64,000 nucleotides of DNA, taken from an uncultured delta proteobacterium. GTDB taxonomy: Bacteria; Desulfobacterota; Binatia; DP-6. The translations under genes and the position numbers were made by a program. The DNA lies in assembly GCA_963815115.1 (NCBI GenBank), contig CAWFFN010000009.1:480001-544000 (forward strand), given 5' to 3'. Under the pieces are notes generated by a model. It worked only from the letters and a program-made list of their open reading frames with translations. It did no database searches and was not told the origin of the DNA. This document shows, in pieces, positions 5,020 to 55,404 of the stretch; the first letter of the stretch is position 1; each line of letters begins with the position of its first letter.

Positions 5020-6495
5020 TTGCGGAAGTGCAAGCAGTGGTCGGTGGGGACCGGGCGGTTGGTTCTGGGCGGGGTCCTGTTGCTCGGGATGACCACCACG
5101 GCGCTCGCGGCAATGTCCGAACGGAAGCAGGCCCTCCAGTGCCGCGCGGGGATCCCGAACTCCGTGCGACGCTTCCTGGTCGACCGTGGTCTCGAGAGCC
5201 TCGGCCGCTGCGTGCATGGCGCCGAAGCGGCGCCGGATACCTGCAACACCATCGTGACCGGACCCGCCGGCGCTCCGACCACACCGTACGGGCTCGGCGA
5301 GAACCGGGCGCAGAAGGCGATCGACATCCTCTGTGCACCGGGAAACCCCGTGCTCGAGAACTACGTTGGCGGGACGCCATCGGACCTGGTGATCCCGACG
5401 GTGAAATCATTGCTCGAACGTGGTGCTCCCGCCGGTCCGCCGGCGGCCGTGCAGACCGCCGCCAAGTCGGGCTCACGCCGCGGGGCGAACGACCGGTGCG
5501 TGCGCGTGGCGACGCACGCGCGAAACATGGTCGTCCGCTCGGCATTCGACCGGGCGGTGGCCTGCCAGACCCGGCTCGACCGGAAGTCGCAGCCACTCGG
5601 CCCCCTGAGCGATGCCTGCCTGCGCGGTGCGGGAGGCGCTGCGCGGGCGGCGCGCAAGGCGCTGCGCCAGGGGTGTCGCTCGAGCACGGCGGGAGTGTGC
5701 GGACCTCTCCCCGGCTGTGTGGTCGATACGGCGGTCGTCACCGGGGAGAACCTCGCCCGCGTCAGCTACTCGCTCGATGTCCAGCAGCAGGTCGTCGAGA
5801 ACGTCTGTGGTGACGGGCGCAAGGGCGGCGACGAGCAGTGCGACGACGGCAACACCGTGTCGAACGACGGGTGCTCGAGCACCTGCACGCAGGAGGGCTG
5901 TTTCATCGACGACAACGTCGTCGGCGGCGAGGCGTGTGACGACGGCAACACCACGGACGACGACTGCTGCAACAACATGTGCATGCCTCCCGTCTGCGGC
6001 GACGGCCAGCGCGCGCTCGGCTGCGACGAGCAGTGTGACGACGCGGTCGATCCGGGATGCATCGGCTGCAAGTTCCCGGCGGTGACCTGCGACGGCCGGG
6101 GAATCGTCCTGCGTGTGCGCGTCGACTACGACAAGGTCCTCGCGCCACAGCTGGCCGGGGTACGCCTCGAGATCGGCTATCCCTCGCAGGTGAGCATCCC
6201 GGTGATGGAGGGCGGCTTCGTCGACTCTTCACGCCTGGTCGACCTGACCGGCAAGGGCGTCTTCCTGGTGGGGCAGGTGGCGACCAGCGGAACGCTCGGA
6301 ATCGTGATCGGCCTCGCCGGCGGCACGTTCGACTCCGGGGATGTCTTCACGGCCCTCCTCGACTGCTCCACGGGCACGTCGACGAGCTTTGCGGACTACC
6401 AGTGCCGCGTGCTGAGCGCCTCCGATCAGGTGGGTAACGACGTCATGCACGCCACCGACATTCCGTGCTCGGTGGCCCAGGTGTCGCTGCCATGA
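5020..6495 (+). CDS. Secreted DUF4215 protein with cohesin-like C-terminus
   Basis: Probable TTG start at 5020 after GGAGAG, followed by a signal peptide; three ExCDD repeats; shared C-terminal domain. Confidence 0.8.
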   Translation: MRKCKQWSVGTGRLVLGGVLLLGMTTTALAAMSERKQALQCRAGIPNSVRRFLVDRGLESLGRCVHGAEAAPDTCNTIVTGPAGAPTTPYGLGENRAQKAIDILCAPGNPVLENYVGGTPSDLVIPTVKSLLERGAPAGPPAAVQTAAKSGSRRGANDRCVRVATHARNMVVRSAFDRAVACQTRLDRKSQPLGPLSDACLRGAGGAARAARKALRQGCRSSTAGVCGPLPGCVVDTAVVTGENLARVSYSLDVQQQVVENVCGDGRKGGDEQCDDGNTVSNDGCSSTCTQEGCFIDDNVVGGEACDDGNTTDDDCCNNMCMPPVCGDGQRALGCDEQCDDAVDPGCIGCKFPAVTCDGRGIVLRVRVDYDKVLAPQLAGVRLEIGYPSQVSIPVMEGGFVDSSRLVDLTGKGVFLVGQVATSGTLGIVIGLAGGTFDSGDVFTALLDCSTGTSTSFADYQCRVLSASDQVGNDVMHATDIPCSVAQVSLP

Positions 6496-6520
6496 GCGCG
6501 AAGACGATGGAGGACCACAG

Positions 6521-8224
6521 ATGATTCGCCGTGCCACGCTGATCTGCGCGCTGGCTGCGCTCTGGTTGGGGACTGGCTCACGCCCCGCAGCCGCGCAGCC
6601 GAGCGCCGCGCTCGAGAACTACGCGCTCTTCGTGCTGGAAGGCTATCGCGGCAAGGGCTCGCACGTCGTCAGCGGCGACGTGGGAGTCAACGCCGGCTCC
6701 CTGGTCTCGTCCGGCAAGCTCGATGCGCCGACCTCGCGCCTCGTCGGTGACCAGGTGACGCTCGCGCGACCCTCGCAGTGTGCAGCGCTGTTCGCGAACC
6801 AGGCCGCGCTGCGCGGCCCGGGGTGTGGGCCGCCGACGTCGTTCGCCAGCCCGATCATCGCCGACGTGGAAGCGGCCTGCGGCTTTCCTCGTCCATTTCC
6901 GACCTGCGACGCCGCCAGCTCGATCCAGGTGGACCACGGCGCCACCCTCGATCTGGCGCCCGGGGTGTACGGCGCCGTCGTGGTGAGCGGGGGCGGCCGC
7001 GGGCCGGGAATGCTGCGCCTCACCGCAGGACACTACGTCTTCTGCAGCCTGAAGGCGTCGCGGCACGCGCAGGTCGTCGTCTCCGGACCGGCCGAGATCG
7101 ACGTCGCCGGCTCGCTCGTCCTCGACAACGGCTCTGGCTTCGGAGCCGAAGAGGGTGGGCCGACGCCCGGCGAGATCGTGGTTCACGTGGCCGGCGATGC
7201 CGTGCGCTTCTCGCGCAAGGCCACGGTGGGAGCCTTGCTCTGCGCACCCGACGCGGAATTGCGCCTCACCGCCGGCGCCGACCTGACCGGCCGTTTCGTG
7301 GCCCGGAGCATCCTGAGCGATCGTGTCACCGTGCGAGCGGTGAGCACGCCGCCGTCGAGCACGACGTCCAGCACCACCCCGACGTCCTCCACGACCAGCT
7401 CGACGAGCTCGACGACCACGTCGACGGCCGCCTCCTCCTCGACGACGACGTCCACGACCACGACCACCGCCTCCACGTCCACGACGACGGCCCCGAGCAC
7501 CTCCAGCACGACGACGATCTCGGCGACCACGTCGACGACGACGGCCCCGAGCACCTCCACGACCACCACCAGCACGACGACCAGCACCACGTCGGCACCC
7601 AGCTCCACCACGACCACGACCGTCACCACGACCAGCACCGCCGCCCCGACCACCAGCACCACGACGGCCAGCACGACGACGCTTCCCAGCTCCACCACGA
7701 CGAGCACCGCCGCCTCGACCACGAACACCACGAGCACCACCACCACGACCGCCCCGCCCACCAGCACGACCACGACGACCAGCGCGTCGACCACCACCAC
7801 GACGCTGGGTGGCGGCGAATGCAGCGGCGGCGGAATCACGGCGCGGCTGGTGGTGAACTATGCCGACGTCGGCGCCCCGGCGCTGTCGGGGCTCCGGCTC
7901 CGGCTGGGCTATCCGTCGTCGCTCAGCCTGCCGAACATTCCCGGCACCGACTTCGTGGACTCGTCCCGGATTCAAGATCTGACCGGGGCCAACGGCTTCC
8001 TGGTCGGTCAGAACGTCAACCAGACCCTCGACGTGGTCTACGGGGTGACCGGTGCCACGTTCCCCTCGGGTGATTTCGTCGAGGTGCAGTTCGATTGCGC
8101 CGGAGGAACCGTGTTGCCGGCCGACTTCGAGTGCAGCGTCGTCAGCGCGTCCGATCAGGTCGGCAACGACGTCCAGAACCCGGGAGCGATCCCCTGCGCC
8201 GTGAGCAGCCTCACGGGGCTGTGA
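6521..8224 (+). CDS. Secreted protein: beta-solenoid (ice-binding/choice-of-anchor-A-like) domain, long Thr/Ser stalk, cohesin-like C-terminus
   Basis: Signal peptide; GDVGVN, LAPGVYG, G.YVFCSL, GALLCAPDA and GRFVA motifs; 154-aa T/S linker. Confidence 0.8.
   Translation: MIRRATLICALAALWLGTGSRPAAAQPSAALENYALFVLEGYRGKGSHVVSGDVGVNAGSLVSSGKLDAPTSRLVGDQVTLARPSQCAALFANQAALRGPGCGPPTSFASPIIADVEAACGFPRPFPTCDAASSIQVDHGATLDLAPGVYGAVVVSGGGRGPGMLRLTAGHYVFCSLKASRHAQVVVSGPAEIDVAGSLVLDNGSGFGAEEGGPTPGEIVVHVAGDAVRFSRKATVGALLCAPDAELRLTAGADLTGRFVARSILSDRVTVRAVSTPPSSTTSSTTPTSSTTSSTSSTTTSTAASSSTTTSTTTTTASTSTTTAPSTSSTTTISATTSTTTAPSTSTTTTSTTTSTTSAPSSTTTTTVTTTSTAAPTTSTTTASTTTLPSSTTTSTAASTTNTTSTTTTTAPPTSTTTTTSASTTTTTLGGGECSGGGITARLVVNYADVGAPALSGLRLRLGYPSSLSLPNIPGTDFVDSSRIQDLTGANGFLVGQNVNQTLDVVYGVTGATFPSGDFVEVQFDCAGGTVLPADFECSVVSASDQVGNDVQNPGAIPCAVSSLTGL
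7343..7804 (+). repeat. Low-complexity Thr/Ser-rich (mucin-like) coding linker
   Basis: Runs of ACC/ACG/AGC/TCG codons inside 6521..8224. Confidence 0.9.
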
Positions 8225-36290: not shown

Positions 36291-37370
36291 TCACACCATC
36301 GCGACGACGTTCTTGACGCCCCGCGGCGGGCCCTGCAGGAGCTCGCCTTGGGCGTCGAGCGGGAAACGTCCCGTGATGAGGTTCCGCGCGACGCCCGGCC
36401 AGCGTGACTCGAACACCGCCAGATCGCCGATCGCCGCCTCGAAGGCCTCGCGGCCGGCGTTGATGGTGCCGAGGACGACCTGATTGCGTAGCACGAGGTT
36501 GCGCATCATCGCCGCGGCGTCGATCTCGAGCGGCCTGCGACCGCCGGGAAGCCCGGTGAGCACGAGCATGCCGTTGTGGCCGAGGGCCTCGAGCGCCTGG
36601 AACACGACCGGGGGCGCGCCGGTCGCCTCGTAGAGCACGTCGATGCCGCCGAGGCGCGTCCCGAGCTGCGCGAGCGGCGCGCGCTCCGAGCTCACGTAGC
36701 GCACCCCGGCGGACGCGAGCAGGGCGGCCTGCGGGCTCGATTCGGGCTCCAGCGACCACACGTGGGTCTCGAAGCCGGCCGCGGCGAGGACGAGCGCGCC
36801 GAGGATCCCGACTGCTCCCGCGCCTGCCACCACCGCCGTACCGCCGCCGCGTCCGGTCCGTTCCCGGACCCCACGGATCTGACCGAGCGCCTTTTCTGCG
36901 ATCGTGAGCGGTTCGACCAGCACGGCGACGTCGCGCAGCGCCGGCGCCACGCGATGGAGATAGCGTGCGTCCTCGACCACCTCCTCGGCCAGGAAGCCGT
37001 GGCGCTCCTTGATGCCATGCTCGACGAAGTCGCCGGTGGTGCAGAGGTCCTGCCGCGCGCTGCGGCACGGGACGCAGGCGTCGTGCGGGCAGGGGCGCCG
37101 CACCGCGGGAACGACGAGGTCGCCGCGCGCGAGCTGCGTCACGGCGGGTCCGACCTCGACCACCTCGGCGAGACACTCGTGCCCGAGGACCAGATGATCG
37201 GAGCCCGCGGGAGGGGTACCGAACTCGAAGCGGCAGATCTCCCGGTCGGTCCCGCAGACGCCGACCTCGAGGACGCGGAGCCGGACGTCGGCGGGCGAGG
37301 AGAGACGGGGCGGGTCGTGCTCCACGAGGCGCACCGCGCGCTCGCGAGGAAAGACGGCGAGGGCCCTCAT
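36291..37370 (-). CDS. Zn-dependent glucose 1-dehydrogenase (MDR family)
   Basis: VGVCGTDRE, LGHE, VRRPC, VLVEPL and GAGAVG motifs. Confidence 0.88.
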   Translation of the reverse strand: MRALAVFPRERAVRLVEHDPPRLSSPADVRLRVLEVGVCGTDREICRFEFGTPPAGSDHLVLGHECLAEVVEVGPAVTQLARGDLVVPAVRRPCPHDACVPCRSARQDLCTTGDFVEHGIKERHGFLAEEVVEDARYLHRVAPALRDVAVLVEPLTIAEKALGQIRGVRERTGRGGGTAVVAGAGAVGILGALVLAAAGFETHVWSLEPESSPQAALLASAGVRYVSSERAPLAQLGTRLGGIDVLYEATGAPPVVFQALEALGHNGMLVLTGLPGGRRPLEIDAAAMMRNLVLRNQVVLGTINAGREAFEAAIGDLAVFESRWPGVARNLITGRFPLDAQGELLQGPPRGVKNVVAMV

Positions 37371-39679
37371 CGACTGCGTCCCAGCCACCACGTGAAGAGC
37401 GCCTTCACCCTCGGCGTGAGCCGCGTCCGGTTGTAAGCGTCGGCGGCCTTCTTCATCACCTCGGCCTGCGTCGGGTAGGGATGGATCGTGCTCCCGATCG
37501 CCCCGAGGCCGATCCCGGCCGTCATCGCCAGGGTGAGCTCCGATATCAGGTCGCCCGCGTGGGTGGCGACCAGCGTGGCCCCGACGATCCTGTCGCTGCC
37601 CGCGCGCAGGTGAACGCGCAGGAAGCCGTCGTCCTCGCCGTCGAGGACCGCGCGGTCGACCTCGCGGAGCGGGACCGTGAGGGTGGTGACGGCGATGCCG
37701 CGCCCGGCGGCATCGTGCTCGGACAGCCCGACGTGCGCGACCTCCGGCGTGGTGTAGGTGCACCAGGGCACGTGGAGGGCGCTCGCCTTCTTCCGCCCGA
37801 AGGCGCCGAAGAGCGCGTTCTGCACGACGATGCGCGCGAGAGCGTCCGCGGTGTGGGTGAACTGGAAGCGCGATGCCACGTCGCCGGCGGCGTAGATGCG
37901 CGGGTTCGTGGTCCGCAGGTGATCGTCCACGACCACTCCCGCGGCCTCGTGGCGTACCCCCGCGGCCTCGAGCCCGAGCCCTTCCAGGTTGGGCGCGCGG
38001 CCGACGCCGACGAGGATGCGATCTCCGACCGCCTCCGACGTGGCGCCGCCCACGCCGTAGCGGACGACGACCTCCGTGCCGCGACGCTCGGCGCCCAGCA
38101 CGCGGGCTCCGTTCACCAGCCGCACGCCGTCGCGCTCCATGCGCCGCTCGACCACCGCCGCCGCATCCGCGTCCTCGCGCGGCAGCGCGTGCGGGGCGTC
38201 GTGCACGACCGTCACCTCGGCCCCGAAGCTCCGGAAGACCTGGGCCATCTCGCAGCCGATCGGACCGGCGCCGATGACGACCAGACGCCGCGGGAGCTCC
38301 GTCAGCCAGAAGACGGTCTCGTTGGTGAGGTAGCCGGTCTCCTCCAGGCCGGGGATGGGCGGAGCGGCGGCTCGCGCGCCCGTCGTGATCACGGCGCGCG
38401 CGAACTCGAGCGTTCTTCCGTCGACCTCGAGCGTGGTCGGGCTCGTGAAACGCCCGCCCCCGATGTAGACGTCGACCCCCAGCTTGGTGAAGCGTTGCAC
38501 GCCGTCGTTGGGCGCGAGCTCGGCGCGCAGGCGGCGCATGCGGGCCATCACGGCGGGGAAGTCGACCTCGACGGAGCCGACCCGGACGCCGAGCTCGCCC
38601 GCCTGGCGCGCGCTCGCGGCCGCGCGGGCGGCGGCGATGAGCGCCTTCGACGGCACGCAGCCGACGTTCAGACAGTCCCCACCGAGGAGGTGACGCTCGA
38701 CGAGCGCGACCTTCGCGCCGAGTCCCGCCGCCCCGGCGGCGGAGACCAGCCCCGCGGTTCCTCCGCCGACCGCCACCAGGTTGTAGCGCCCGCTCGGACG
38801 CGGATTCTGCCGGCCGCCGGGGTGCACGTGCGACAGCAGCGTCCGGTTGAACTCGTCGTCGGGAAGGACGAGCGGCCCGGGCGCGTGGCCGGCGACCGGC
38901 GCCGGGTGCGCTTCCTCGGCGCTGCGTTCGACCGTGGCCTCGTCCAGGGCACGCCGGGCGATGCGCGTGACGACGACCGTGACCGCCACCGTGGCGGCGA
39001 AGCCGAGGAAGGTGAGCGCCTGCTTCGCCGTTCCGCCCGAGGGCGCACCCGAGGCGAGCTGGCTCACGCTCGTGATCAGCGATCCCAGGTAGACGTACAT
39101 GACCGTGCCCGGCACCATGCCGACGAGCGAGCCGATCACGTAGTCGCGGAAGGTCACCCGGGTGAGGCCGTACGCGTAGTTGAGGAGATTGAAGGGGAAG
39201 GCAGGCGAGAGTCGCGTGAGCAGCACGATCTTCAGCCCTTCGCGGCCCACCGCGCGATCGATGGCGGCGAAACGGGCGTTGCCGGCCACGCGCGCCGCGA
39301 TCCGGTCGCGAGCCAGCGTGCGCCCGAGGAGGAACGCGACCGCGGCGCCGAGATTGGCGGACACCCAGACCAGCGGGACGCCCACGGCGACGCCGTAGGC
39401 GAAGCCGGCGCCGAGCGTGAGGATGAGTCCCGGCAGGAGGAGGATGCACGCGATGACGTAGGCGGCAACGAAGACCGCCATGCCGGCGAGCCCGGCGCCC
39501 CGGATCCAGGCGACGAAGCCCAGCAGCCAGTCGTTGACGGGGAGGAGCTTCAGGGCGCCGAGCACCGCGACCAGGACGAGAGCGAGCAGGACGAGGCGGC
39601 CCGTGCCGCCGCCCTGCGGCCGCGCCTCGGGGGATGCGAGCGTCGCTGGTCCGGGCGGGGCGCTCATGGACTCCGTCAT
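37367..39679 (-). CDS. TVP38/TMEM64 (DedA-like) membrane domain fused to a pyridine nucleotide-disulfide oxidoreductase (MerA/Lpd-like)
   Basis: LTRLSPAFPFNLLNYAYG; GGGTAG; GGDCLNVGCVPSK; GAGPIG; HPYPTQAE. Confidence 0.9.
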   Translation of the reverse strand: MTESMSAPPGPATLASPEARPQGGGTGRLVLLALVLVAVLGALKLLPVNDWLLGFVAWIRGAGLAGMAVFVAAYVIACILLLPGLILTLGAGFAYGVAVGVPLVWVSANLGAAVAFLLGRTLARDRIAARVAGNARFAAIDRAVGREGLKIVLLTRLSPAFPFNLLNYAYGLTRVTFRDYVIGSLVGMVPGTVMYVYLGSLITSVSQLASGAPSGGTAKQALTFLGFAATVAVTVVVTRIARRALDEATVERSAEEAHPAPVAGHAPGPLVLPDDEFNRTLLSHVHPGGRQNPRPSGRYNLVAVGGGTAGLVSAAGAAGLGAKVALVERHLLGGDCLNVGCVPSKALIAAARAAASARQAGELGVRVGSVEVDFPAVMARMRRLRAELAPNDGVQRFTKLGVDVYIGGGRFTSPTTLEVDGRTLEFARAVITTGARAAAPPIPGLEETGYLTNETVFWLTELPRRLVVIGAGPIGCEMAQVFRSFGAEVTVVHDAPHALPREDADAAAVVERRMERDGVRLVNGARVLGAERRGTEVVVRYGVGGATSEAVGDRILVGVGRAPNLEGLGLEAAGVRHEAAGVVVDDHLRTTNPRIYAAGDVASRFQFTHTADALARIVVQNALFGAFGRKKASALHVPWCTYTTPEVAHVGLSEHDAAGRGIAVTTLTVPLREVDRAVLDGEDDGFLRVHLRAGSDRIVGATLVATHAGDLISELTLAMTAGIGLGAIGSTIHPYPTQAEVMKKAADAYNRTRLTPRVKALFTWWLGRSR

Positions 39680-39810: not shown

Positions 39811-40545
39811 TCAGGCCTCCGGGGCGTCTCGCCGGACGGGGGTGACCCGGTTCCTCGCGATGTCGAGGTAGACCTCCTCGTAGTCCACCCGATCCGCTAT
39901 CAGACCGTGGAACGCGTTCAGCATCGCGGAGGCGACGGCGAGGTTGGTGAAGAGGAGCTGCGGCGCGCCCGCCGTCGCCAGCCGGCCGCAGCCGGGGGTG
40001 CTCGGGACGACTGCCGGAGCGTCGGCGATCTCCGGATGGTGGCGGGTGAGCGAGCTGGACAGCCAGACGCCGTCCGCGCGCCTGACGACCTGCACGTTGC
40101 CGTAGGTCCCGCTCCGCCCGGCCTCGGGCTCGACGCCGTCGTTTCCGCCCGACAGCAGCACGACGTCGCGCAGGCGCTCCACCGCCTCGGAGACCACCCG
40201 GCGGCTGGCGTGATTGTCGACGGCCAGGAACACGATCTGTCCCTCCCGGATGATCGTCCCCACGTTCTCCGGCGTCACGTACTCCGGCACGGGCTCGATC
40301 GTGACGACCTCGCCGAATGCCTGAGCCAGCTCGCGCGCCATGGCGACGGCCTTGTTCTCGAGGCTCACGAACCGCATTCGGCTCCGGTTGCTCTCCTCGA
40401 ACGCGTCGCCGTCGACGAGCGTCAGGTGGGAGAGCCGTCGCTCCGCGTGCAGGTAGTGGCAGAGGTGGCGCGCGACATGGCCGCCGATTCCGCCGCAACC
40501 GACGACGGTGATCTCAGTAGGACCACGCATATCCGTGCTTGCCAT
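39811..40545 (-). CDS. ThiF/E1-like activating enzyme (E1-b, PRTRC-type)
   Basis: VVGCGGIGG, DGD.FEESNRSR, NKA and AVDN motifs; candidate catalytic Cys in PSTPGC followed by PQL..TN. Confidence 0.88.
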   Translation of the reverse strand: MASTDMRGPTEITVVGCGGIGGHVARHLCHYLHAERRLSHLTLVDGDAFEESNRSRMRFVSLENKAVAMARELAQAFGEVVTIEPVPEYVTPENVGTIIREGQIVFLAVDNHASRRVVSEAVERLRDVVLLSGGNDGVEPEAGRSGTYGNVQVVRRADGVWLSSSLTRHHPEIADAPAVVPSTPGCGRLATAGAPQLLFTNLAVASAMLNAFHGLIADRVDYEEVYLDIARNRVTPVRRDAPEA

Positions 40546-41245
40546 CGGTCCGGCGCTCCTCGACGACCTGGATCCGCTCGAGCCATTCGGGTGGCCATGC
40601 GCGGCTCGCGTGCGCCGGCTCGAGCACCTGCTCCGGGGGGACGGGGAAGCGCGTCCCCGCGACGACGAACGCGGCGTCGAACTCGGGCAACGTCGAATCG
40701 ACGTAGCCCACCGTCACGTGCAGCCCGGTCTCGAAGAGCTCGTCGTGCTCGTCCACCAGGCTGTGGCGCGGGCTGAGCTCGGCGTGGCTGTGCATCGTGC
40801 CCAGCTTCCGCCATTCGGGCCCCGGGCGTGCGCACGGCCCGTAGCTCAGGCGCAGATCGGCGCGAAACCGCCCGTGCTCCACCCGACCGCGAATGGTCTG
40901 GGGCGGCGCTTCGACGCGATAGCGAGCCCGGCGGCCGTCGGCGGCGGGTGCGTAGAACATGAACAGCACGGCCTCGCCCTCCCAGCGATCGTAGACGGAG
41001 CGGAAGAAGCCCAGCGCCGTCTCGACGAGACTGCGGGGCAACCGGCGAGGGAGCCGGAGGTCGAGGCGTGCCTCGTGGGGAAGCAGGCCGGGAACGCCGC
41101 CGTCCACCCGGACCGTCGCAGCATACAGCTCCGTGCGCCGGTCGAGAAAGAGACCATTGCCCGCGATCACGTAGGAGGTGTCGGCGTCGGACGGTGTGAA
41201 CGCGTCGTCCTTCAGCAGCACGGGAAACATCGGCGCTGCGAGCAT
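40514..41245 (-). CDS. JAB/JAMM metallopeptidase (JAB-b, PRTRC protein A-like)
   Basis: Upstream Glu (GEAV) and an exact H-S-H-x7-S-x2-D motif (HSHAELSPRHSLVD); GLHVTVG. Confidence 0.88.
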   Translation of the reverse strand: MLAAPMFPVLLKDDAFTPSDADTSYVIAGNGLFLDRRTELYAATVRVDGGVPGLLPHEARLDLRLPRRLPRSLVETALGFFRSVYDRWEGEAVLFMFYAPAADGRRARYRVEAPPQTIRGRVEHGRFRADLRLSYGPCARPGPEWRKLGTMHSHAELSPRHSLVDEHDELFETGLHVTVGYVDSTLPEFDAAFVVAGTRFPVPPEQVLEPAHASRAWPPEWLERIQVVEERRTDGKHGYAWSY

Positions 41246-41247
41246 CG

Positions 41248-42387
41248 TCACGGCTCCAGCTGCATGAGCGTCACCAGCTGCTCGACACGCTCGACGGGAT
41301 GCCAGGGGGCCACGCGGTCCAGCATGTACTCGAGCGTGCCACCGACGGTGCGGGACGCCCGGCGCCAGTGCACCTGGAGCGCGAAGTAGGGATCGGCGCA
41401 GGTCGCCTCTTCCCACGCGTCCGCGCTCGCAAGTCGCGCGTCGATCGATGCGGCCGACTCCCAGTACGAGTTGCCCTCGTGCATCTCGGCCGAGCGGTTG
41501 AAGGCCGCGTGCCAGAAGTGATCGGTCACGGCCTTCAGGCGAGCAGACGACGACAGCCGACGCAGGCTCCGGTTGCTCAGCGCCACCAGACACACCCAGC
41601 TCTCCTGGTCCTCGTAGGCCGGCGCCTGCGCGCAGTTGAGCAGACAGGTGAAGGAGAGGTGGTCGTCGAGCGACTCGATGGGGGTGCTCCGGAAGAAGGC
41701 CTGCTGCATGCCGGTGAGCATCCCGTCGCGAAGGACCAGGAACAGCACCACCCAGGGGAACGACAGCCGGCGCTGGCGGTAGCGCGCTTCGGCCCCGAAC
41801 GCGTCCGGCGAATCGTCGGCGATCCACCGGACCACGCGAGGGCCCGGAGGCATCTCGATGACTGCCCCGAGCACCGTCCCCCCGGCGCGCTCGGCCATGA
41901 GCCGGACGTTCGGCGGGTGGACGCGCCACGTCGCCGGCCCGCTGCCCGTCGCGACGACCCGGTCGAGCAGATGGCGGACCGGCGTGGAGCCCATCATGCG
42001 ACCATCGCGGCGCCACACGGCGCTCGTGTCGGCGATCTCGATCGCCGACCGGGCGGCCCGCACGGAAGCCTGCGCGCCGGCGCCCTTCTCGCCGGCGTAC
42101 TTGACGAACTCGAGATGCTCGCCCACGGCGAGCACGTGGTCGTCCGGCACCTGACGGCCGCCTACGAGTGCCACGGCGGCGGGATGGATGCCGAAGAGTG
42201 CTGCCGCGATCGCCCGGGCCGCTCCGACGCAGCGGCCGGCGAGATCCAGGTCCTGCACGTCGGCGCCCGCGATCACGCGGACGCGTGCGGCGGCGGCGGT
42301 TCCGGCGACCGCGGGATCGGTGGCGACCGGGTCGGAGGGTGGCGCCTCGAGCGGGAGCGAAGGACGCTGCTGTTGCTGCTGTGTCAT
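41248..42387 (-). CDS. Ubiquitin-like domain (ending ...LEFVKYAGEKG) fused to a prokaryotic E2-like domain
   Basis: Beta-grasp-like segment RVRVIAG...ALVGG...LAVGEHLEFVK.AGEKG; LSFPWVVL, FFR, LLNC...WVCL, FW..AFN; ATGA coupling. Confidence 0.72.
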   Translation of the reverse strand: MTQQQQQRPSLPLEAPPSDPVATDPAVAGTAAAARVRVIAGADVQDLDLAGRCVGAARAIAAALFGIHPAAVALVGGRQVPDDHVLAVGEHLEFVKYAGEKGAGAQASVRAARSAIEIADTSAVWRRDGRMMGSTPVRHLLDRVVATGSGPATWRVHPPNVRLMAERAGGTVLGAVIEMPPGPRVVRWIADDSPDAFGAEARYRQRRLSFPWVVLFLVLRDGMLTGMQQAFFRSTPIESLDDHLSFTCLLNCAQAPAYEDQESWVCLVALSNRSLRRLSSSARLKAVTDHFWHAAFNRSAEMHEGNSYWESAASIDARLASADAWEEATCADPYFALQVHWRRASRTVGGTLEYMLDRVAPWHPVERVEQLVTLMQLEP

Positions 42388-44048
42388 CTCGGAGTTCCTC
42401 CTCGTGCCGTGTGTTCGACCTTGGTCAGGGCCTGGTCCTCGGGCAGGCGACCGGCGAGAGCGCTGCGGACGTTGTCGCGGGTGATGGAGCGACAGCGCTC
42501 GACGAAGTACGCCGTCGTGGCGGCGGTGAGGTCGTCGAGGGTGAGCGGACCGGGCTCCTCGCGGCCGGCGCGGAGATCGCGCTGCGCGAGCCGAGCGAGA
42601 AGCGGCCGCACGACGCCGTCCGCGATCGCGGCCGCCGTTGCGAGGTCGCGCGCTCCGAACGACAGCATGCGGCCGTCGGCGAGCTGCACGCGAAGCAGCT
42701 CGGCGAGCGTGCCGTTGGGCGCGAACACGAGGTCGCTCACGGCTGCCCCGAACTCGCGTGACAGGCGATCGTGAGCCGGCTTCCGGGCGTCCTCCGGGGA
42801 CGCGAGCGGGATCCGGGTGAGGCACTTCGCCACCAGCGTCGCCACCTGCGCCGCGTCCAGGGTGTGCGGCAGCTGCACGATCGGCAGGCGGCCGTCGCGC
42901 GTGAGCGCCGTGTCGAGGTAGCGGTCGGCGAGGTTGGAGATGCCGATCAGGCGGCCCTGTGAACGCGTGAGCAGCGCGAGCAGCGTGTCGAGGACGTCGA
43001 GGTAGCCGCCGTGCAGCATGAAGCCCTGGCTGCGATCGAGGGCGATGGCCTCGAGCTCGTCGATGACGAGGAGGGGCCTCACCCCGGACTCCTCCCAGGC
43101 GCGGTCGAGGGTCATGAAGTCGGCGCGGAGCCGGGCCGCGCCCTCGCCCACCCACTTGGAGAGAAACGACGAAGCGGTCCGCACCAGCGCCGTACCACCG
43201 CGAGCCCGGATGCGATCGACGAAGTAGTCGGCGAGCAGGCTCTTGCCACAGCCCGGCGGCCCGCACAGGACGGCGCCGGCAGCAGCGCGCTCGGCCTCGC
43301 CCAGCAGCGCCGCGTACGCCGGCGATGGCGGGGTCAGGAACAGTCGCTCGAGGCGCTCGATGACGTCGTCGAGGCCGACGATGTCCTCGCGCCGGACCGG
43401 ACGAGGCACGCCCATCTCCGGTGCCGCGGGCCGCTGCGCCGGTCCGAGCCGCCGCGTGACCAGCACCACGTTGCCAAGCGCAAGCCCGCCGTAGCCGAGG
43501 ACGCGGTCCTCGAAGGCGAGCGTGTCCAGATCGACGCTGTCGGCGACGACGCCGAGCAGGCGCGCCTCCTCCTGGCCGGCTTCGCGGAGCGGACGCACCA
43601 GCACGTGGCGGCCGTCGAGACGCTCGCACACGGCATAGGCGGAGCCCCCGATCAGGTACTCCCCCGCCCCGACGACCGTCTGGGCCCCGGCATCGGTGTA
43701 GACGATCTGGCCGATCCCGAGCGTCATGTCGGCGGGCCGCACCAGGACGCGCTCGGTGGGGCCGATCTGCAGGCACACCCGGCCGTTCTGCACCGCCGTC
43801 ACGATGCCACGCAGCTGCGCGCCTCCCCCGAGCATGCGCTCGAGCTGCTCGCGCGTGCCGCTGAGCTCTCGTCGAGCCGCCGCCGTGCGCGTCGCGGCAC
43901 GCAGGAGGCCGTCCGCAGCGGGGCCGAACGCGTCGAAGGCGATGCGGCGCGCCTCGGCCTGGCGCTCCGGCGGAACGTCGGGATCACACAGGACGTCGAG
44001 CAATCCGTCGATGTCGGACGGCGACTCCGTCTTGGCGCGTGACCTCAT
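42384..44048 (-). CDS. AAA+ ATPase, ARC/Mpa (proteasomal ATPase)-like
   Basis: Coiled coil and beta-rich (OB-like) N-terminus; Walker A GPPGCGKS; pore loop LSKWVGE; Walker B IDELE; ISN; TRDGRL; ARC-like insert LRVQLADGR....RDL. Confidence 0.85.
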   Translation of the reverse strand: MRSRAKTESPSDIDGLLDVLCDPDVPPERQAEARRIAFDAFGPAADGLLRAATRTAAARRELSGTREQLERMLGGGAQLRGIVTAVQNGRVCLQIGPTERVLVRPADMTLGIGQIVYTDAGAQTVVGAGEYLIGGSAYAVCERLDGRHVLVRPLREAGQEEARLLGVVADSVDLDTLAFEDRVLGYGGLALGNVVLVTRRLGPAQRPAAPEMGVPRPVRREDIVGLDDVIERLERLFLTPPSPAYAALLGEAERAAAGAVLCGPPGCGKSLLADYFVDRIRARGGTALVRTASSFLSKWVGEGAARLRADFMTLDRAWEESGVRPLLVIDELEAIALDRSQGFMLHGGYLDVLDTLLALLTRSQGRLIGISNLADRYLDTALTRDGRLPIVQLPHTLDAAQVATLVAKCLTRIPLASPEDARKPAHDRLSREFGAAVSDLVFAPNGTLAELLRVQLADGRMLSFGARDLATAAAIADGVVRPLLARLAQRDLRAGREEPGPLTLDDLTAATTAYFVERCRSITRDNVRSALAGRLPEDQALTKVEHTARGGTPR

Positions 44049-45049
44049 GTGTTGCTCCTCGGCTCTCGGTCGAGCACCCAGTAACCCGGTTCCTCCTCGA
44101 CGGTGCCGTCGGGCGTGTATCCGTAGAGCCTGACGACGCGACCGTCGGGGTAGAGGGACACGATCACGCTCGCGGCGAACGGGTCCGTGAAGGTCGTGAG
44201 ATGCGTCACGACGTCGGCGATCGAGATGATCGGCGTCTCGCCGGCCTGGTGGAGGTGCGTGTGCACCGAGCACGTGACGCTCGGCACGTCGGGGGGAGGC
44301 GCGGCCAGGAATTCGGCCCATGATCCCGCGGGAGAGACCACGGTCGAGTCGGTCGCCTCGCCGGCCCGTATCGGGACGAGCCGGTGGAGAATGCGCACGA
44401 ACGTCCGCCGCATGCGATCGAAGCCCACGCGCGCGTGCATCCTGCCGGAGGTCTCGACCCCGCGCGCCCGGCTGGCACGCTCGAGCTCGCCGAAGGCCTC
44501 CACGACGTCGGCGGACAGGAAGGTCGCCATCCACTCCCGGGATGGATTGCCCTCGGCCGTGGCACCGGCCGCGAGCGCGTCGACCGACATCGCCGGGAGC
44601 GCGGGGATGGAGACCCGCAGCGGTGGATCGGCGCACTCGGCAGCATGCAGTGAATAGGCGATCCGGGCGGTCGCTGCGCCGGTGCCGCGTGACGCACCCG
44701 TGACGTGCAACGCGCGCGCGCTCACGAAGGGTGCGAAGACGTCGCGTGGAAACTCGCCGCGGGACACCACCCGCCCGCGATCGTCGCGCAGCTCGACGAT
44801 GCAGGAGTCGAGGCAGAGGGTGCTCCCGTGTCGATCACGGAGCCGGCCGGGGCGGAACCACGCATGAGCCGATTCCGGGATCCCGAGCAGACCGTCGCGC
44901 ACGCCCACGAGCGCGGCCGTGCGCACGAGCCACTCGCAGTGGGGAAGCTCGAGCACGACCACGTCGGCCGAGCTGCCCACCACGAGCGGGAGCGACATGG
45001 CAATGCCGTCCGGCGCGGCGCCGGCGAGCGGCATCGGATGCGCGCTCAT
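44045..45049 (-). CDS. JAB/JAMM domain protein with long N-terminal region (JAB-a)
   Basis: VETSG Glu; SVHTH...ISIAD; F..PF; coupled to both neighbours. Confidence 0.75.
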   Translation of the reverse strand: MSAHPMPLAGAAPDGIAMSLPLVVGSSADVVVLELPHCEWLVRTAALVGVRDGLLGIPESAHAWFRPGRLRDRHGSTLCLDSCIVELRDDRGRVVSRGEFPRDVFAPFVSARALHVTGASRGTGAATARIAYSLHAAECADPPLRVSIPALPAMSVDALAAGATAEGNPSREWMATFLSADVVEAFGELERASRARGVETSGRMHARVGFDRMRRTFVRILHRLVPIRAGEATDSTVVSPAGSWAEFLAAPPPDVPSVTCSVHTHLHQAGETPIISIADVVTHLTTFTDPFAASVIVSLYPDGRVVRLYGYTPDGTVEEEPGYWVLDREPRSNT

Positions 45050-45050
45050 C

Positions 45051-45320
45051 TCAAAGGAGCGCGTTGGCATACTCCGGGCCGATGACGACCCGTCCGCCGG
45101 GACGGACGGCGGTGCCGACCTTCGCCATCCTGGGCAGCTCGTGGCCCTCGTGGAGCGCCGCGTAGCGCAGCGGCTTGTTCGACGCCACGTCGCGGGTGGG
45201 GAGCCGGAGCTTCGGGACCGCGGCGTCGGTCAGGCGCTCGACTGACCAGTCCTCCGGCACCGTGTCGTCGAACGACACGGCCTCGTCGTGACGTGTGAGA
45301 TGAATTGCGATTGCCTGCAT
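45051..45320 (-). CDS. Small ubiquitin-like (beta-grasp, YukD/EsaB-like) protein (Ubl-a)
   Basis: 89 aa with RBS AGGGAGG; VP.D.SV..L......L.LP......Y.....G..L.....VG..V..G..V.I.P pattern; lies between the E2 and JAB genes. Confidence 0.72.
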   Translation of the reverse strand: MQAIAIHLTRHDEAVSFDDTVPEDWSVERLTDAAVPKLRLPTRDVASNKPLRYAALHEGHELPRMAKVGTAVRPGGRVVIGPEYANALL

Positions 45321-45324
45321 GGTT

Positions 45325-45702
45325 TCACCCTCCCTGTTCGGTGTCGGTCACTGCGTCGCCGCCGGCGACGCGAAGATCCATCAGCTCGAGATAGCTGCGT
45401 GCGACGTCCTCGTCGCCGAGCGCGCGCAATCCGCGGGCGAGCTCGTGCACCTCGGCGGCCAGTGCGTCGCGCCCGTCGGGGGCGCACCGCTCGACGAGCG
45501 CGCCCGGGCCGTCGTGCCAGCCACCGGCGCAGCGCCGGAGATCCGCCGAGGCGGCGCAAAGGAATGCCCTCCTCGCGCGATCGACGACGAGGCCGCCCGG
45601 TCGTCCGAGCCTCAGGAAGAGGGGCGCCGTGATGGACGGAAGCGTCGTCGCCAGCACGCCGGCCGTGACGTCGACGATGGGAAGCGGGATCGAAGCGGTC
45701 AT
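45325..45702 (-). CDS. Hypothetical protein within the Ubl operon
   Basis: ATGA overlap with the E2 stop; ends 4 nt before the Ubl start. Confidence 0.65.
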   Translation of the reverse strand: MTASIPLPIVDVTAGVLATTLPSITAPLFLRLGRPGGLVVDRARRAFLCAASADLRRCAGGWHDGPGALVERCAPDGRDALAAEVHELARGLRALGDEDVARSYLELMDLRVAGGDAVTDTEQGG

Positions 45703-46211
45703 CGTGGGTCCGCGGGGTAGAGGGGGCGGTGATCGGCGGGTCCGTCCGGCAGGTGGCTGCGGACGTAGTCGGCGGCGACCGGGTCGACGCAGTGATCGAG
45801 GCGCCGGTTGCGGATCCGGAGGTTGTCGTAGAGCAGCTCGGCGAGCCGGTGCGGACGAACGCCCCGAACGTCGAGGCACAGGCGCTTCTCGCCGTAGTTC
45901 GGCGCGACGAAGTCGAACGGGGTCAGCACGATCGGCACGAGCGCCGCCTCGCGGTCGAACGGCCAGAGCGGCGGACATACCACCACGACCTGGAAGTCGC
46001 GCGTGGCGATGGTCGGGCCGCCATCGGTTGCGACCAGGGTCCGCACGTCACGGTAGTGCAGCAGGACGCCGTCGGCCATGCCCTGGACCTCGAGACGCCC
46101 CTGGGTTCGCCGCGCGTCGTCGTACAGGACGAGGAGCATGTTGGTGAGCGCGCGGCGGCGGATCGCGAGGCGCCCTGCCTCGAGCCTCTCGGTCTCCGGC
46201 CCGAACGTCAT
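45699..46211 (-). CDS. Ubiquitin-conjugating enzyme E2-like protein (E2-a)
   Basis: CPPLWPF (cf. P.xYP), FVAPN.....LCL (cf. FHPN...ICL), DPVAADY, P.D.RPL; ATGA coupling. Confidence 0.78.
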   Translation of the reverse strand: MTFGPETERLEAGRLAIRRRALTNMLLVLYDDARRTQGRLEVQGMADGVLLHYRDVRTLVATDGGPTIATRDFQVVVVCPPLWPFDREAALVPIVLTPFDFVAPNYGEKRLCLDVRGVRPHRLAELLYDNLRIRNRRLDHCVDPVAADYVRSHLPDGPADHRPLYPADPR

Positions 46212-47308
46212 GGGACCTCCGACCATCTGAAGCGCGCGCGCAGCCGCACGACGCCCTTTCGGCCGACGGCGAGGATCTCCTCGCCGGGCCCGCTCCCGAA
46301 CTGTCGCAGCGTGATCGCTGCGACCTCCGGAGCGAGAAGCTCACGAGCCCCGACCTGGGAGCGCGTCGCCAGCGGTCGGCGGGGCTCCGAACAGGAGCAG
46401 CCACGCTCGATGGCTGCGGCCGGCAGCAGCCGGAGGGGCGCGGGCGACACGAGGCGGCAGCGCAGGCATTCCATGCCGAGCATGGGGATGCTCCGCCGTC
46501 CGAGCAGCACGGTCGCATCGTCGCCGGCCTCGGCGATGAGCCGCTCGACGATCGCGCCGACGGTCAGGTCGTCGATCCCGCCGTCGAGTTCGATCACGCG
46601 CGACTCGTCGGGGTGATGTGCGACGGGACAGCCGGGTACCGGGTGCGGTGGCATGCGGATCACGTACTCCGGTCCAGCGGAATCACGCTGGTGACGGCCG
46701 CCGGCCACGGATCGGTCGCCCTCGAGCCAGCGCAGGAGCAGCCGCACGCCGGCGTCGGCTGCTGCCGCGGCGGCTTCGGCCGATGCACGCGGCGCCGTCG
46801 TCTCGTCGCAGCTCGTCGCCGACGCCAGGCGATCCGCGTGCCGCTCCGTCTCCCCCCACAGGCACACGGGGCACGAGGCGTTCCGGCCCGTCGCGAAACA
46901 CCGCACCTGGTATCCGCCGCGAGTCGACTGGTTCCCGCAGGTGAGAACCAGGAGCAGCGGCCCGGTCACGGCGCCGCCCCAGATTGCCTCGACGACGTCG
47001 CGGATCGCGGTGGGATTGTCGAGCGCCAGGACGACGGCGTCGAGCGCGCGCACCAGCCCGGGCCGCACCGTGAAGCGTACGTCGCCGTGGAGAGCACGAG
47101 CGATCGCCCCCCGCGCACGCCGCCGATCCGCGGTGACGACGGCCTTCGGCCGGAAGCAGTCGGCGGCGTCGAAGAGCGACGTGGACAGGTTCTCGGGCAG
47201 GACCTGCTGAGCATCGGCGACGGTGACGGCGATGGACGCCGGCAGCAGCCCGGCGACGCGCGAGCCGATGGCGCCGGCGCCGAAGAGGCCCACCTCCGCG
47301 CCGCTCAC
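46208..47308 (-). CDS. E1-like ThiF-family enzyme with Zn sites and C-terminal UFD-like region (E1-a)
   Basis: FGAGAIG, ENL, PKA, ALDN, CPVC, candidate catalytic TSC, GCPVAH and CLRC...CSC; GTGA coupling. Confidence 0.8.
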   Translation of the reverse strand: MSGAEVGLFGAGAIGSRVAGLLPASIAVTVADAQQVLPENLSTSLFDAADCFRPKAVVTADRRRARGAIARALHGDVRFTVRPGLVRALDAVVLALDNPTAIRDVVEAIWGGAVTGPLLLVLTCGNQSTRGGYQVRCFATGRNASCPVCLWGETERHADRLASATSCDETTAPRASAEAAAAAADAGVRLLLRWLEGDRSVAGGRHQRDSAGPEYVIRMPPHPVPGCPVAHHPDESRVIELDGGIDDLTVGAIVERLIAEAGDDATVLLGRRSIPMLGMECLRCRLVSPAPLRLLPAAAIERGCSCSEPRRPLATRSQVGARELLAPEVAAITLRQFGSGPGEEILAVGRKGVVRLRARFRWSEVP

Positions 47309-47742
47309 GGTGACGCCTCCGGGGTCTCGTCCTGGACGGGCGCAGCGCATCCGGAGCAGGTGATGGCGAGCGTGGCGCAGTCCGTGTGGGCCGGCGCCTC
47401 GCACCGGCACGCCACGATCGGCTCCCCGGCCGCGATCGCGCCGAAGCACACCGCGCACTCGAGCCCGGCCGGCGCCGTCCGCCACTCGCGTGCGGACTGC
47501 CACCGCACCTCCACGCGCCACTCGCCGGCGCGCACCAGCGCCCCGGCACCACGGTCGACCACCCCGAGCCCTCCCAGCATCGGCCGACCATCGATCCGTG
47601 CGCCGGACGGCGGCGCCAGCACGACGGCATCGCCGCCTGTCATGCGGACGAAGCGCAGAACCGGGACCTGGCCGCTGCGACCGACCTCGACGATGTCTCG
47701 CAGGACGAGGGACGCAGCCGGCGTGACGATGACGTGCGGCAT
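47305..47742 (-). CDS. Degenerate FHA-like domain plus C4HC3 RING finger (candidate E3 ligase)
   Basis: C-x2-C-x12-C-x-C-x4-H-x2-C-x6-C-x2-C; N-terminal VGR...ARIDG..M..GL.VV..G..VR.G beta pattern; RBS AGGAGG. Confidence 0.75.
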   Translation of the reverse strand: MPHVIVTPAASLVLRDIVEVGRSGQVPVLRFVRMTGGDAVVLAPPSGARIDGRPMLGGLGVVDRGAGALVRAGEWRVEVRWQSAREWRTAPAGLECAVCFGAIAAGEPIVACRCEAPAHTDCATLAITCSGCAAPVQDETPEASP

Positions 47743-54324: not shown

Positions 54325-55404
54325 TGCTCCGCCGTCGAGATGCGCTCAAGCATTCGACGATGCGACCGGATGATCGCCGCGGCAGGTTTCGTCCAGGCGA
54401 ACGGCGTCGGGTTCTTCTTCCAGGCGCGCATGTAGGCGTTGAGATGATCGCGCAGGGCCTTCGCCGAGTGGAAGTCCGTCAGGCTCAGGGATTGTTTGCC
54501 GAGAATGCCGAAGAACCCTTCCACTTGATTGAGCCACGACGCGCTCGTCGGGGTGTAGTGGAAGCGAACCAAGGGGGGGCGTATCGAGCCAGGCGCGCAC
54601 GGCGGGGGTGCGGTGGGACGACGAATTGTCGAGAATGACGTGCAGTTCGCGGCCCGGATACGCCCGCACGACTTTCTCCATGAACGCGAGGAAGTCCGCG
54701 GCGGTGTGCCGAGCGCTGAGCCGATGCGTAACGTCGCCGGTCGCGACTTCGAGGGCGGCGTACAGATCGACGACCCCATGGCGCTTGTAGTCGTGGGTGT
54801 GCCGCACGGCGCGGCCGGAGCGCAGCGGGAGCGGCCGTTGCGTCCGCTCCAACGCTTGGATCGACGTCTTCTCGTCCACGCTGAGGACCACGGCGTGCTC
54901 GGGGGGATGGAGGTAGAGCCCCACGATGTCGTGCACCTTCGCGACAAAGTCCGGGTCGCGGCTCACCTTGTACGTGCGCACGTGATGGGGCTTGAGCCCG
55001 TGGCGCCGCAGGAGATCGGACACGCAGCCACTCGTCAGGCCGACTTCCTTCGCGAGCAGGCGCGTCGTCCAGCGGCTGCGGCCCGCCGGCGGGGGCGACA
55101 TAGCCAGCTCGACCACGCGCTCCACCGTCGCGGCGGGGACGGCGTGATCCGTGCGCCCGCCCTTCGGTCGCGTGGCGAGGCCGGCGACCCCGCCGTCGAG
55201 AAACCGGCGTCGAATCCGCGACACAGCCTCGGCCGACAGCTGCAGGCGGCGGGCGATGTCGGCGCCCGCCACGCCGTCGGCACTCCACAGCACCACATGC
55301 GCGCGCCGGATCACCTGCGCCGAGTCAGTCGCCCGCGCCACGAGGGTCTCCAACTCGCGCCGCTGCTTCGCCGTAAGCCCCACCACCATCCGCCGTCGTC
55401 TCAT
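54321..55404 (-). pseudogene. IS630 transposase, frameshifted (one extra C in a C7 run near 54573-54579)
   Basis: SVDEKT, YKRHG and ILDN..SH in one frame; RFHYTPTSASWLNQVE continues in the other frame. Confidence 0.85.

Follow-up and report, generated by a model that had tools for sequence, protein, structure and literature searches.

A conserved bacterial fusion of a ubiquitin-like protein and a predicted E2-like domain, with a candidate processing site between them

Does a bacterial gene that encodes a ubiquitin-like protein (Ubl) and a candidate E2 conjugating enzyme in one chain give rise to a precursor that is cut into its two parts? This question is raised by a locus on contig CAWFFN010000009.1 (NCBI GenBank assembly GCA_963815115.1) of an uncultured delta proteobacterium, from which positions 480,001 to 544,000 were analysed, a stretch of 64,000 nucleotides that we call the window. 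On its minus strand, a single open reading frame (ORF) runs from an ATG at 42387 to a stop codon at 41248–41250 and encodes a product of 379 residues, the Ubl–E2 protein. An earlier reading of the DNA alone (the original prediction) had proposed that a Ubl ending in GEKG continues through a linker into an E2 domain, and that a JAB peptidase encoded next door cuts after the Lys-Gly and releases the two in a 1:1 ratio, so that proteolysis might serve as an activation switch. The ratio follows trivially, because both parts lie in one fusion.

A conserved Ubl–E2 fusion gene

The sequence GGAGG lies 9–13 nucleotides 5′ of the ATG, and the start overlaps the stop codon of an upstream AAA ATPase gene (ATGA). 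All of the peptide strings quoted in the original prediction were found in the translation: LEFVKYAGEKG, which ends at residue 102 (nucleotide 42082), the Ala-rich AGAQASVRAARSA, RRLSFPWVVLFLVL, CLLNCAQ, SWVCLVAL and HFWHAAFNRS. A whole-protein AlphaFold2 model built from a 40-sequence alignment (A1) had a mean predicted local distance difference test score (pLDDT) of 81.8, with low values only at residues 1–31 and 98–110. The protein was divided as follows.

42292..42387, minus strand: residues 1–32, disordered Gln/Pro-rich N-terminal tail of the Ubl (pLDDT 36–38; alignment A1)
42082..42291, minus strand: residues 33–102, ubiquitin-like beta-grasp (Ubl-b) with the end AGEKG (AlphaFold2 pLDDT 80–95; fold matches)
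42082..42087, minus strand: K101–G102 codons, proposed processing site with the cut after G102 (conservation; ends of the fold alignments)
42055..42081, minus strand: residues 103–111, Ala-rich linker of variable length (pLDDT below 50 for residues 98–110)
41251..42054, minus strand: residues 112–379, E2-like (UBC-like) domain of 268 residues (domain model; VIA-align; invariant residues)

No Pfam, NCBIfam or PADLOC model matched the fusion protein. A word-seeded search returned 63 relatives, nearly all of 360–380 residues, and a profile search of 1.84 billion representatives (50% identity) returned 2088 proteins at E ≤ 0.001. Sorting of 288 stored proteins with local hidden Markov models (HMMs) of the Ubl and E2-like parts gave 136 fused proteins, 146 that carry the E2-like part alone, 3 that carry the Ubl alone and 3 operon proteins unrelated to either. 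The fused architecture is kept down to ~30% identity and comes from many sources. At the level of independent loci, it is present in 12 of 14; one locus (L003) carries split genes, and L005 is a further split case.

A stop codon lost between two genes, or a frameshift, could have produced such a frame during sequencing or assembly. High-GC DNA yields long spurious frames, and some relatives do have two genes at that place. This account sits poorly with fusion in 136 relatives of diverse origin and in most of the independent loci. An independent soil-metagenome contig (run X5; 233 nucleotides, 41945–42177) also spans the Lys-Gly codons with five substitutions, no indel and no stop codon, and the two decoded substitutions are both synonymous. 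Among the sequencing runs listed as containing this DNA, only DNA runs with a small share of it appeared, and no RNA run. We give an artefact a negligible probability. Because the same fused architecture recurs in the 136 stored relatives, the fusion is not a product of chance; it is conserved.

A ubiquitin-like fold that ends in Lys-Gly

The segment that the original prediction had placed at about 42290–42082 comprises residues 33–102 and coincides exactly with an AlphaFold2 beta-grasp that matches ubiquitin-like proteins. When this segment was compared with 48,161 chains by VIA-align, the best match was Fubi (8bs3_B; Z 9.1, root-mean-square deviation (rmsd) 1.7 over 66 residues), followed by many ubiquitin, SUMO, ISG15 and MoaD chains (MoaD 1fm0_D, Z 8.1). 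The top Foldseek match was the ubiquitin of Caldiarchaeum (CsUb, 6fnn_C; probability 1.00, E 0.015), and probabilities of 1.00 were obtained for both CsUb and ubiquitin, with E values of 0.015–0.08. The VIA-align alignments to Ub-like chains stop at model residues 97–103, mostly at 100–102. A beta-grasp, the absence of which the original prediction had listed as refuting it, was predicted, with K101–G102 as its last aligned residues, and the models indicate that residues 33–102 are a ubiquitin-like beta-grasp.

Ahead of this fold lie ~30 disordered residues rich in Gln, Arg and Pro (A1 columns 1–35) that keep an M-x-Q start; M1 is invariant, Q3 is nearly so and the remainder is variable. The tail is also found on the stand-alone Ubls of L011 and L012, and on none of the tandem-repeat proteins. 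It could be a site at which the AAA ATPase engages Ubl-b.

The Lys-Gly junction as a candidate processing site

G99, K101 and G102 are invariant across the 40 orthologues of A1. More broadly, the Ubl ends in [KR]-Gly in 136 of 136 fused relatives and in KG in 135 of them (124 GxKG, 11 xxKG and 1 LRG). The residue after GxKG is Ala in 77 of the 124, and the gap between KG and the start of the C-domain profile is 5 at the median and at most 80, the negative values being profile-edge effects. Of the 146 relatives with the E2-like part alone, 72 look complete: they open with Met (a few use Val or Leu codons) a few residues ahead of the first conserved strand, just past the linker. The other 74 are fragments or have an N terminus too diverged to be judged.

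The ends of separate Ubl genes, known from four loci, are GEKG followed by 26 residues (L011), GEKG followed by 31 residues (L012), GEKG-V-stop (L005) and GERG-AG-stop (L003); the long tails of L011 and L012 show no relationship. A search among shorter proteins for further stand-alone Ubls scored none of its 775 candidates. A stop codon after GEKG in homologues, which the original prediction had raised, was thus found in some of them and near the motif (GEKGV-stop in L005, GERGAG-stop in L003), whereas 136 continue into the E2-like part. Two further proteins consist of head-to-tail Ubl repeats, four in P0169 and three in P0181, and every repeat ends in G-x-K-G. No form of Ubl-b that we saw, whether fused, split or tandem, ends exactly at the glycine. 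As every form has residues past the Gly, each would need trimming to expose it. The conserved fusion, the split forms and the variable linker together argue that the junction is a natural domain boundary. Taken with the invariant [KR]G and the tandem forms, these comparisons agree with processing after KG.

The peptidase that would make the cut is encoded by the next gene, at the place where the original prediction had put it.

40514..41245, minus strand: JAB-b, JAMM/MPN+ metallopeptidase of 243 residues, starting 2 nucleotides past the Ubl–E2 stop codon (JAMM motif)

JAB-b has no Pfam match, and a profile search of the PDB returned only 2kcq (Mov34/MPN, E 0.1). Its motif (E … HxH x7 S xx D) is intact: none of E91, H152, S153, H154, S162 and D165 varies among the 14 sequences compared. 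Gene linkage was counted in 14 related loci, with the assessable loci as denominators, and JAB-b directly follows Ubl–E2 in 13 of 13. E1 activating enzymes require a free C-terminal carboxylate. Because of this requirement, because all forms of Ubl-b extend past the Gly and because a JAMM gene is always adjacent, a JAB-b cut after Gly102 is the most economical reading, and comparison of the relatives supports the processing hypothesis well.

Complex prediction was applied to JAB-b with residues 30–125. The score was 0.50, that of the best of three controls was 0.00, contact agreement between runs was at least 90% and partner pLDDT was at least 72. In calibration, 58 of 80 solved complexes and 2 of 110 mismatched pairs reached the mark that this score passed; only 7 of the 80, and both mismatches, did so with a score of 0.60 or below. 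JAMM–Ub complexes have already been solved, and the pass may simply reflect structures known to the predictor. The predicted complex lends weak support to cleavage by JAB-b.

The fusion could also stay intact. The beta-grasp would then be a built-in Ubl domain, for example for docking on the AAA ATPase or the E1, and JAB-b and its partner E1 (E1-b) would have a different modifier as their substrate, for instance the small protein of a neighbouring gene set (module a, listed below). The 136 relatives that hold both parts in one chain agree with this, as does a second small candidate modifier nearby, and uncleaved Ubl domains on partner enzymes are known: PMC1779556 describes a ThiF that bears a Ub-like domain at its N terminus and has a separate ThiS next to it. 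An invariant [KR]G end followed by a variable linker is hard to reconcile with a permanent domain, however, and split and tandem-repeat forms exist. Four genomes of family f17, moreover, have all of the b-module genes and no module a found by two queries, so Ubl-b is the only evident substrate of E1-b there; L003 likewise carries the b-module without a detectable module a, with Ubl-b as the only candidate E1 substrate. We therefore consider a permanently intact fusion unlikely, and favour release of Ubl-b by JAB-b.

The C-terminal domain and its conserved Asn and Cys

Modelled alone with 53 diverse relatives (alignment A2), the C-terminal domain reached a pLDDT of 93.1. In the model, a small beta-beta-beta-alpha subdomain lies at the N-terminal end and helices at the C-terminal end; the possibility that this N-terminal subdomain is a degenerate Ubl repeat was rejected (hhalign probability 0.3%). 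The best VIA-align match was UbcH10 (5a31_Q; Z 5.1, rmsd 4.2 over 119 residues), and most of the list is made up of E2, UEV and RWD proteins, among them three from bacteria, CdnG-E2 (Z 4.6), BubB (9eav_D, Z 4.1) and Cap2 (Z 3.6). Judged by entry titles, about 25 of the 50 rows are E2s; with background on the entries beyond their titles, about 37 of the 50 count as E2, UEV or RWD proteins. In Foldseek, the best rows were E2 enzymes at E values of 0.04–0.4, and none reached E ≤ 0.001. The make-up of the match list, with no single match deciding, suggests that the domain has a UBC/E2-like fold.

Only four residues are invariant over the 53 relatives: P211, N251 (41635–41637), C266 (41590–41592) and W325. 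N251 and C266 are also invariant in A1. An Asn followed 11–15 residues on by a Cys is the pattern that would be expected of a UBC active site. E2 profiles (UQ_con and the Prok-E2 families) gave no Pfam match to the fusion protein at E ≤ 0.1 or to the 53 C-domain relatives at E ≤ 0.01, and a search of PDB sequences with the C-domain profile gave no match at E ≤ 10.

Two unusual relatives were seen. P0206 (713 residues), possibly anchored in a membrane, has its E2-like domain at 391–602, preceded by a long stretch of hydrophobic sequence; P0180 (561 residues) reads like E2-like, JAB and E1 genes joined by frameshifts.

A minimal E1 and a constant AAA ATPase

The gene after JAB-b encodes an E1-like protein, as the original prediction had also stated, and the gene upstream of Ubl–E2 encodes an AAA ATPase, a constant partner on which the original prediction had not commented.

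39811..40545, minus strand: E1-b, minimal ThiF-type adenylating enzyme of 244 residues, overlapping the JAB-b ORF (Pfam ThiF)
42384..44048, minus strand: AAA ATPase of 554 residues, classical p97/PAN clade (Pfam AAA, 49.9 bits)

E1-b matched Pfam ThiF (PF00899) at 60.5 bits, against a cut-off of 28.1; ThiF was the sole Pfam match over its 244 residues, with no rhodanese domain. Its Cys186 is invariant in nine of nine sequences. E1-b lies downstream in 9 of 10 assessable loci, the locus without it being L037.

The nearest PDB match of the AAA ATPase is the D2 domain of p97 (7.6e-20), and NCBIfam gave sub-threshold matches to PAN, pup_AAA (Mpa) and CDC48. An AAA gene lies upstream in 10 of 10 assessable loci (nine by tblastn and L003 by Pfam), and in L012 it adjoins a stand-alone E2-like gene. 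In L003, from a metagenome-assembled genome (MAG) labelled Spirochaetales, the AAA gene (5737–7878, plus strand) lies upstream of the split Ubl and E2 genes, and its product matches the OB C-terminal domain of proteasomal ATPases (34.4 bits, cut-off 23), an Mpa/PAN-like architecture. A search of the genome for the 20S proteasome family PF00227 gave a single match, unlinked on another contig; this match may be HslV-like, because an E. coli control also matches.

These results bear on a second alternative, in which Ubl-b is processed but the C-terminal domain is a non-catalytic, UEV- or RWD-like binding or adaptor module, or in which Ubl, E1 and JAB form a sulfur-carrier system like the ThiS/MoaD-type JAB–E1 operons. 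Non-catalytic UEV and RWD proteins are among the weak fold matches, no E2 HMM matches the domain, and JAB, E1 and ThiS/MoaD operons of sulfur chemistry are documented in Table 1 of PMC1779556 (rows 4a–4e). Against a non-catalytic domain stand Asn251 and Cys266, invariant across 53 diverse relatives. A sulfur carrier, for its part, fits poorly with an E1-b that has no rhodanese domain, with 14 loci in which no sulfur-metabolism gene is linked and with a constant partner that is an AAA ATPase. We judge this alternative to be improbable, slightly more so than an intact fusion.

A proposed precursor and relay

We propose that Ubl-b (residues 1–102) is translated in one chain with its own E2-like enzyme (residues ~112–379) and that JAB-b would cut after Gly102, exposing the C-terminal glycine of the Ubl. 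E1-b would adenylate this glycine and probably take the Ubl onto Cys186, from which it would move to Cys266 of the released E2-like domain and then to targets. The p97/PAN-like AAA ATPase, as a constant member of the module (module b), would most likely act on the Ubl-tagged products. We hold this sequence of events, as a whole, to be probable.

Several points weigh against it. Cleavage and conjugation are deduced from comparison and predicted structure. The terminal motif of Ubl-b is Lys-Gly, not Gly-Gly. The E2 assignment leans on weak structural matches (best Z 5.1; none in Foldseek at E ≤ 0.001), with neither an HMM nor a PDB sequence match, and Cys266 is a putative catalytic residue, proposed from its invariance and its spacing from Asn251. 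The complex prediction adds no more than weak support, and JAB-b could serve only to remove conjugates.

Comparison with known systems

Eukaryotic ubiquitin is translated as polyubiquitin or as fusions to ribosomal proteins, and a cut behind its terminal Gly sets it free. The Ubl–E2 family likewise has tandem-repeat members. Here, however, the partner in the fusion is the conjugating enzyme itself, and the candidate protease is a JAMM enzyme encoded next door.

A precedent that the original prediction had omitted comes from bacteria. In Type I Bub, BubCD cuts the Ubl–E2 fusion BubAB immediately after a conserved Gly, as determined by Edman sequencing (PMC11601596, Ye et al.), and polyUbl–E2-like fusions are listed for operon type 6e by Iyer et al. 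2006 (PMC1779556, Table 1). Type I Bub (6E.1) and the system described here have in common a Ubl and an E2 in one chain and a JAMM peptidase in the operon. They differ in that Bub has a JAB–E1 fusion (BubCD), whereas separate ORFs of 243 and 244 residues are found here and in related loci; in that Bub works through Ser and Tyr oxyesters, with a Ser-based E2 and a Cys-less E1 crossover loop, whereas Cys266 and Cys186 are invariant here; and in the single beta-grasp ending in KG and the constant p97/PAN-like AAA ATPase partner of the present system. The serine protease BubE (DUF6527) had no Pfam match among 28 distinct proteins of the window, to which the search was confined (9 cluster genes, 15 flanking genes, 1 further cluster ORF and 2 rescanned flanking genes, with residues 108–379 also scanned separately). 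Of five testable Type I Bub features, the family has the Ubl–E2 fusion and lacks the other four. The principle of release by cleavage is already known, and the main interest of the present system lies in its constant AAA ATPase partner and its putative Cys-based chemistry.

In the operon of Caldiarchaeum subterraneum, the CsUb precursor is cut behind its Gly-Gly motif by CsRpn11 (PMC6043591). That removal of a C-terminal extension from a Ub-like precursor by the JAMM enzyme of the operon resembles the removal proposed here, and CsUb is the top Foldseek match of Ubl-b. The CsUb extension is nine residues long and is not an enzyme. The Caldiarchaeum operon has a RING E3 and is closer to module a than to module b.

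PRTRC cassettes also combine a small ThiF, a JAB, an E2-like protein and a Ubl, and the best NCBIfam match of E1-b is PRTRC_ThiF over the full length. All scores fall far short of the family cut-offs (PRTRC_ThiF, 55.7 bits where 144.75 is required; PRTRC_A, 13.9 where 101.8 is), and PRTRC_B, PRTRC_C and the other PRTRC models gave no match in the NCBIfam scan. The original prediction had likened the C-terminal domain to Prok-E2 family D/PRTRC protein B. A probable UBC/E2-like fold with an Asn…Cys pair is what stands of this proposal; membership of that family had no profile match. The sole pointer to Prok-E2_D was that 11–22% of the members of the nearest language-model clusters carry PF14460. 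That family had no match in the genome at E ≤ 10 and none in 401 genomes of the phylum, with a control genome positive. Membership is not supported, as neither the protein nor its 53 relatives match in Pfam or NCBIfam and PF14460 gives nothing in the genome at E ≤ 10.

Module a, gene surroundings and distribution

Directly upstream of module b and its AAA gene lies a second module, whose members were named largely from position.

44045..47742, minus strand: module a
47305–47742, minus strand: RING-like protein (Prok-RING_1, 18.2 bits, below the cut-off)
46208–47521, minus strand: E1-a, frame of 437 residues with an uncertain start (ThiF, 32.3 bits)
45699–46226, minus strand: putative E2-a, 175 residues (position only, no family match)
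45325–45702, minus strand: conserved ORF of 125 residues between putative E2-a and Ubl-a (no Pfam match)
45051–45320, minus strand: small protein of 89 residues, possible Ubl-a (position only, no family match)
44045–45070, minus strand: large protein of 341 residues, possible JAB-a (position only, no family match)

The 125-residue ORF is 34–53% identical across the four loci with a complete module a, and the whole array of modules a and b is collinear in L002, L030, L032 and L039. Module a looks like the eukaryote-like Ub/E1/E2/RING/JAB operon type. Adjoining E1-b, a gene at 37367–39460 (minus strand) encodes a VTT/DedA-type membrane domain fused to a pyridine nucleotide-disulphide oxidoreductase, and a DDE_3/HTH transposase gene (54346–55404, minus strand) lies ~7 kb from the cluster. 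Genes that flank the cluster in the window have housekeeping rather than defence roles.

The Ubl–E2 family is sporadic. A sample of 401 genomes of the phylum contained it in 7, and 5 of these belong to the 12 genomes of one family; MAGs labelled delta-proteobacterium and Spirochaetales also carry it. A tblastn search with the C-terminal domain found no match in 72,556 plasmids and 50,697 phage records, and a scan of viral contigs found no relative. In the four f17 genomes (G051, G373, G009 and G300; loci L011–L014 and L015–L024), module b is dispersed over three chromosomal places, as a Ubl gene, an AAA–E2 pair and, on another contig, a JAB–E1 pair. So dispersed, the module resembles a resident function of the cell more than it does a mobile defence cassette.

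Biological implications

A wider role can be imagined for module b and its AAA ATPase, namely a self-contained bacterial tag-and-unfold pathway analogous to ubiquitin–Cdc48/proteasome or Pup–Mpa. The Ubl would be released by JAB-b and conjugated through Cys thioesters, its N-terminal tail would serve as the entry point for the ATPase, and the tagged protein would be unfolded or extracted, perhaps in series with the neighbouring eukaryote-like RING/E1/E2 module. We offer this extension as speculative, and as a whole it is doubtful. Our literature searches, which did not cover Burroughs et al. 2011, found no paper on this family; that study is said to treat bacterial RING/E1/E2 operons and may describe the Ubl–E2 module.

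Bacteria have repeatedly come to encode a modifier and its E2 in a single precursor, a design proven for Bub with its oxyester chemistry. The Ubl–E2 family would add an independent second example, in which Cys stands where it is expected in both E1 and E2. The family is large and unannotated, has no model in Pfam or NCBIfam and is always found with an AAA ATPase of proteasome or p97 type; it could give a simple bacterial model of ubiquitin-like tagging coupled to ATP-dependent unfolding.

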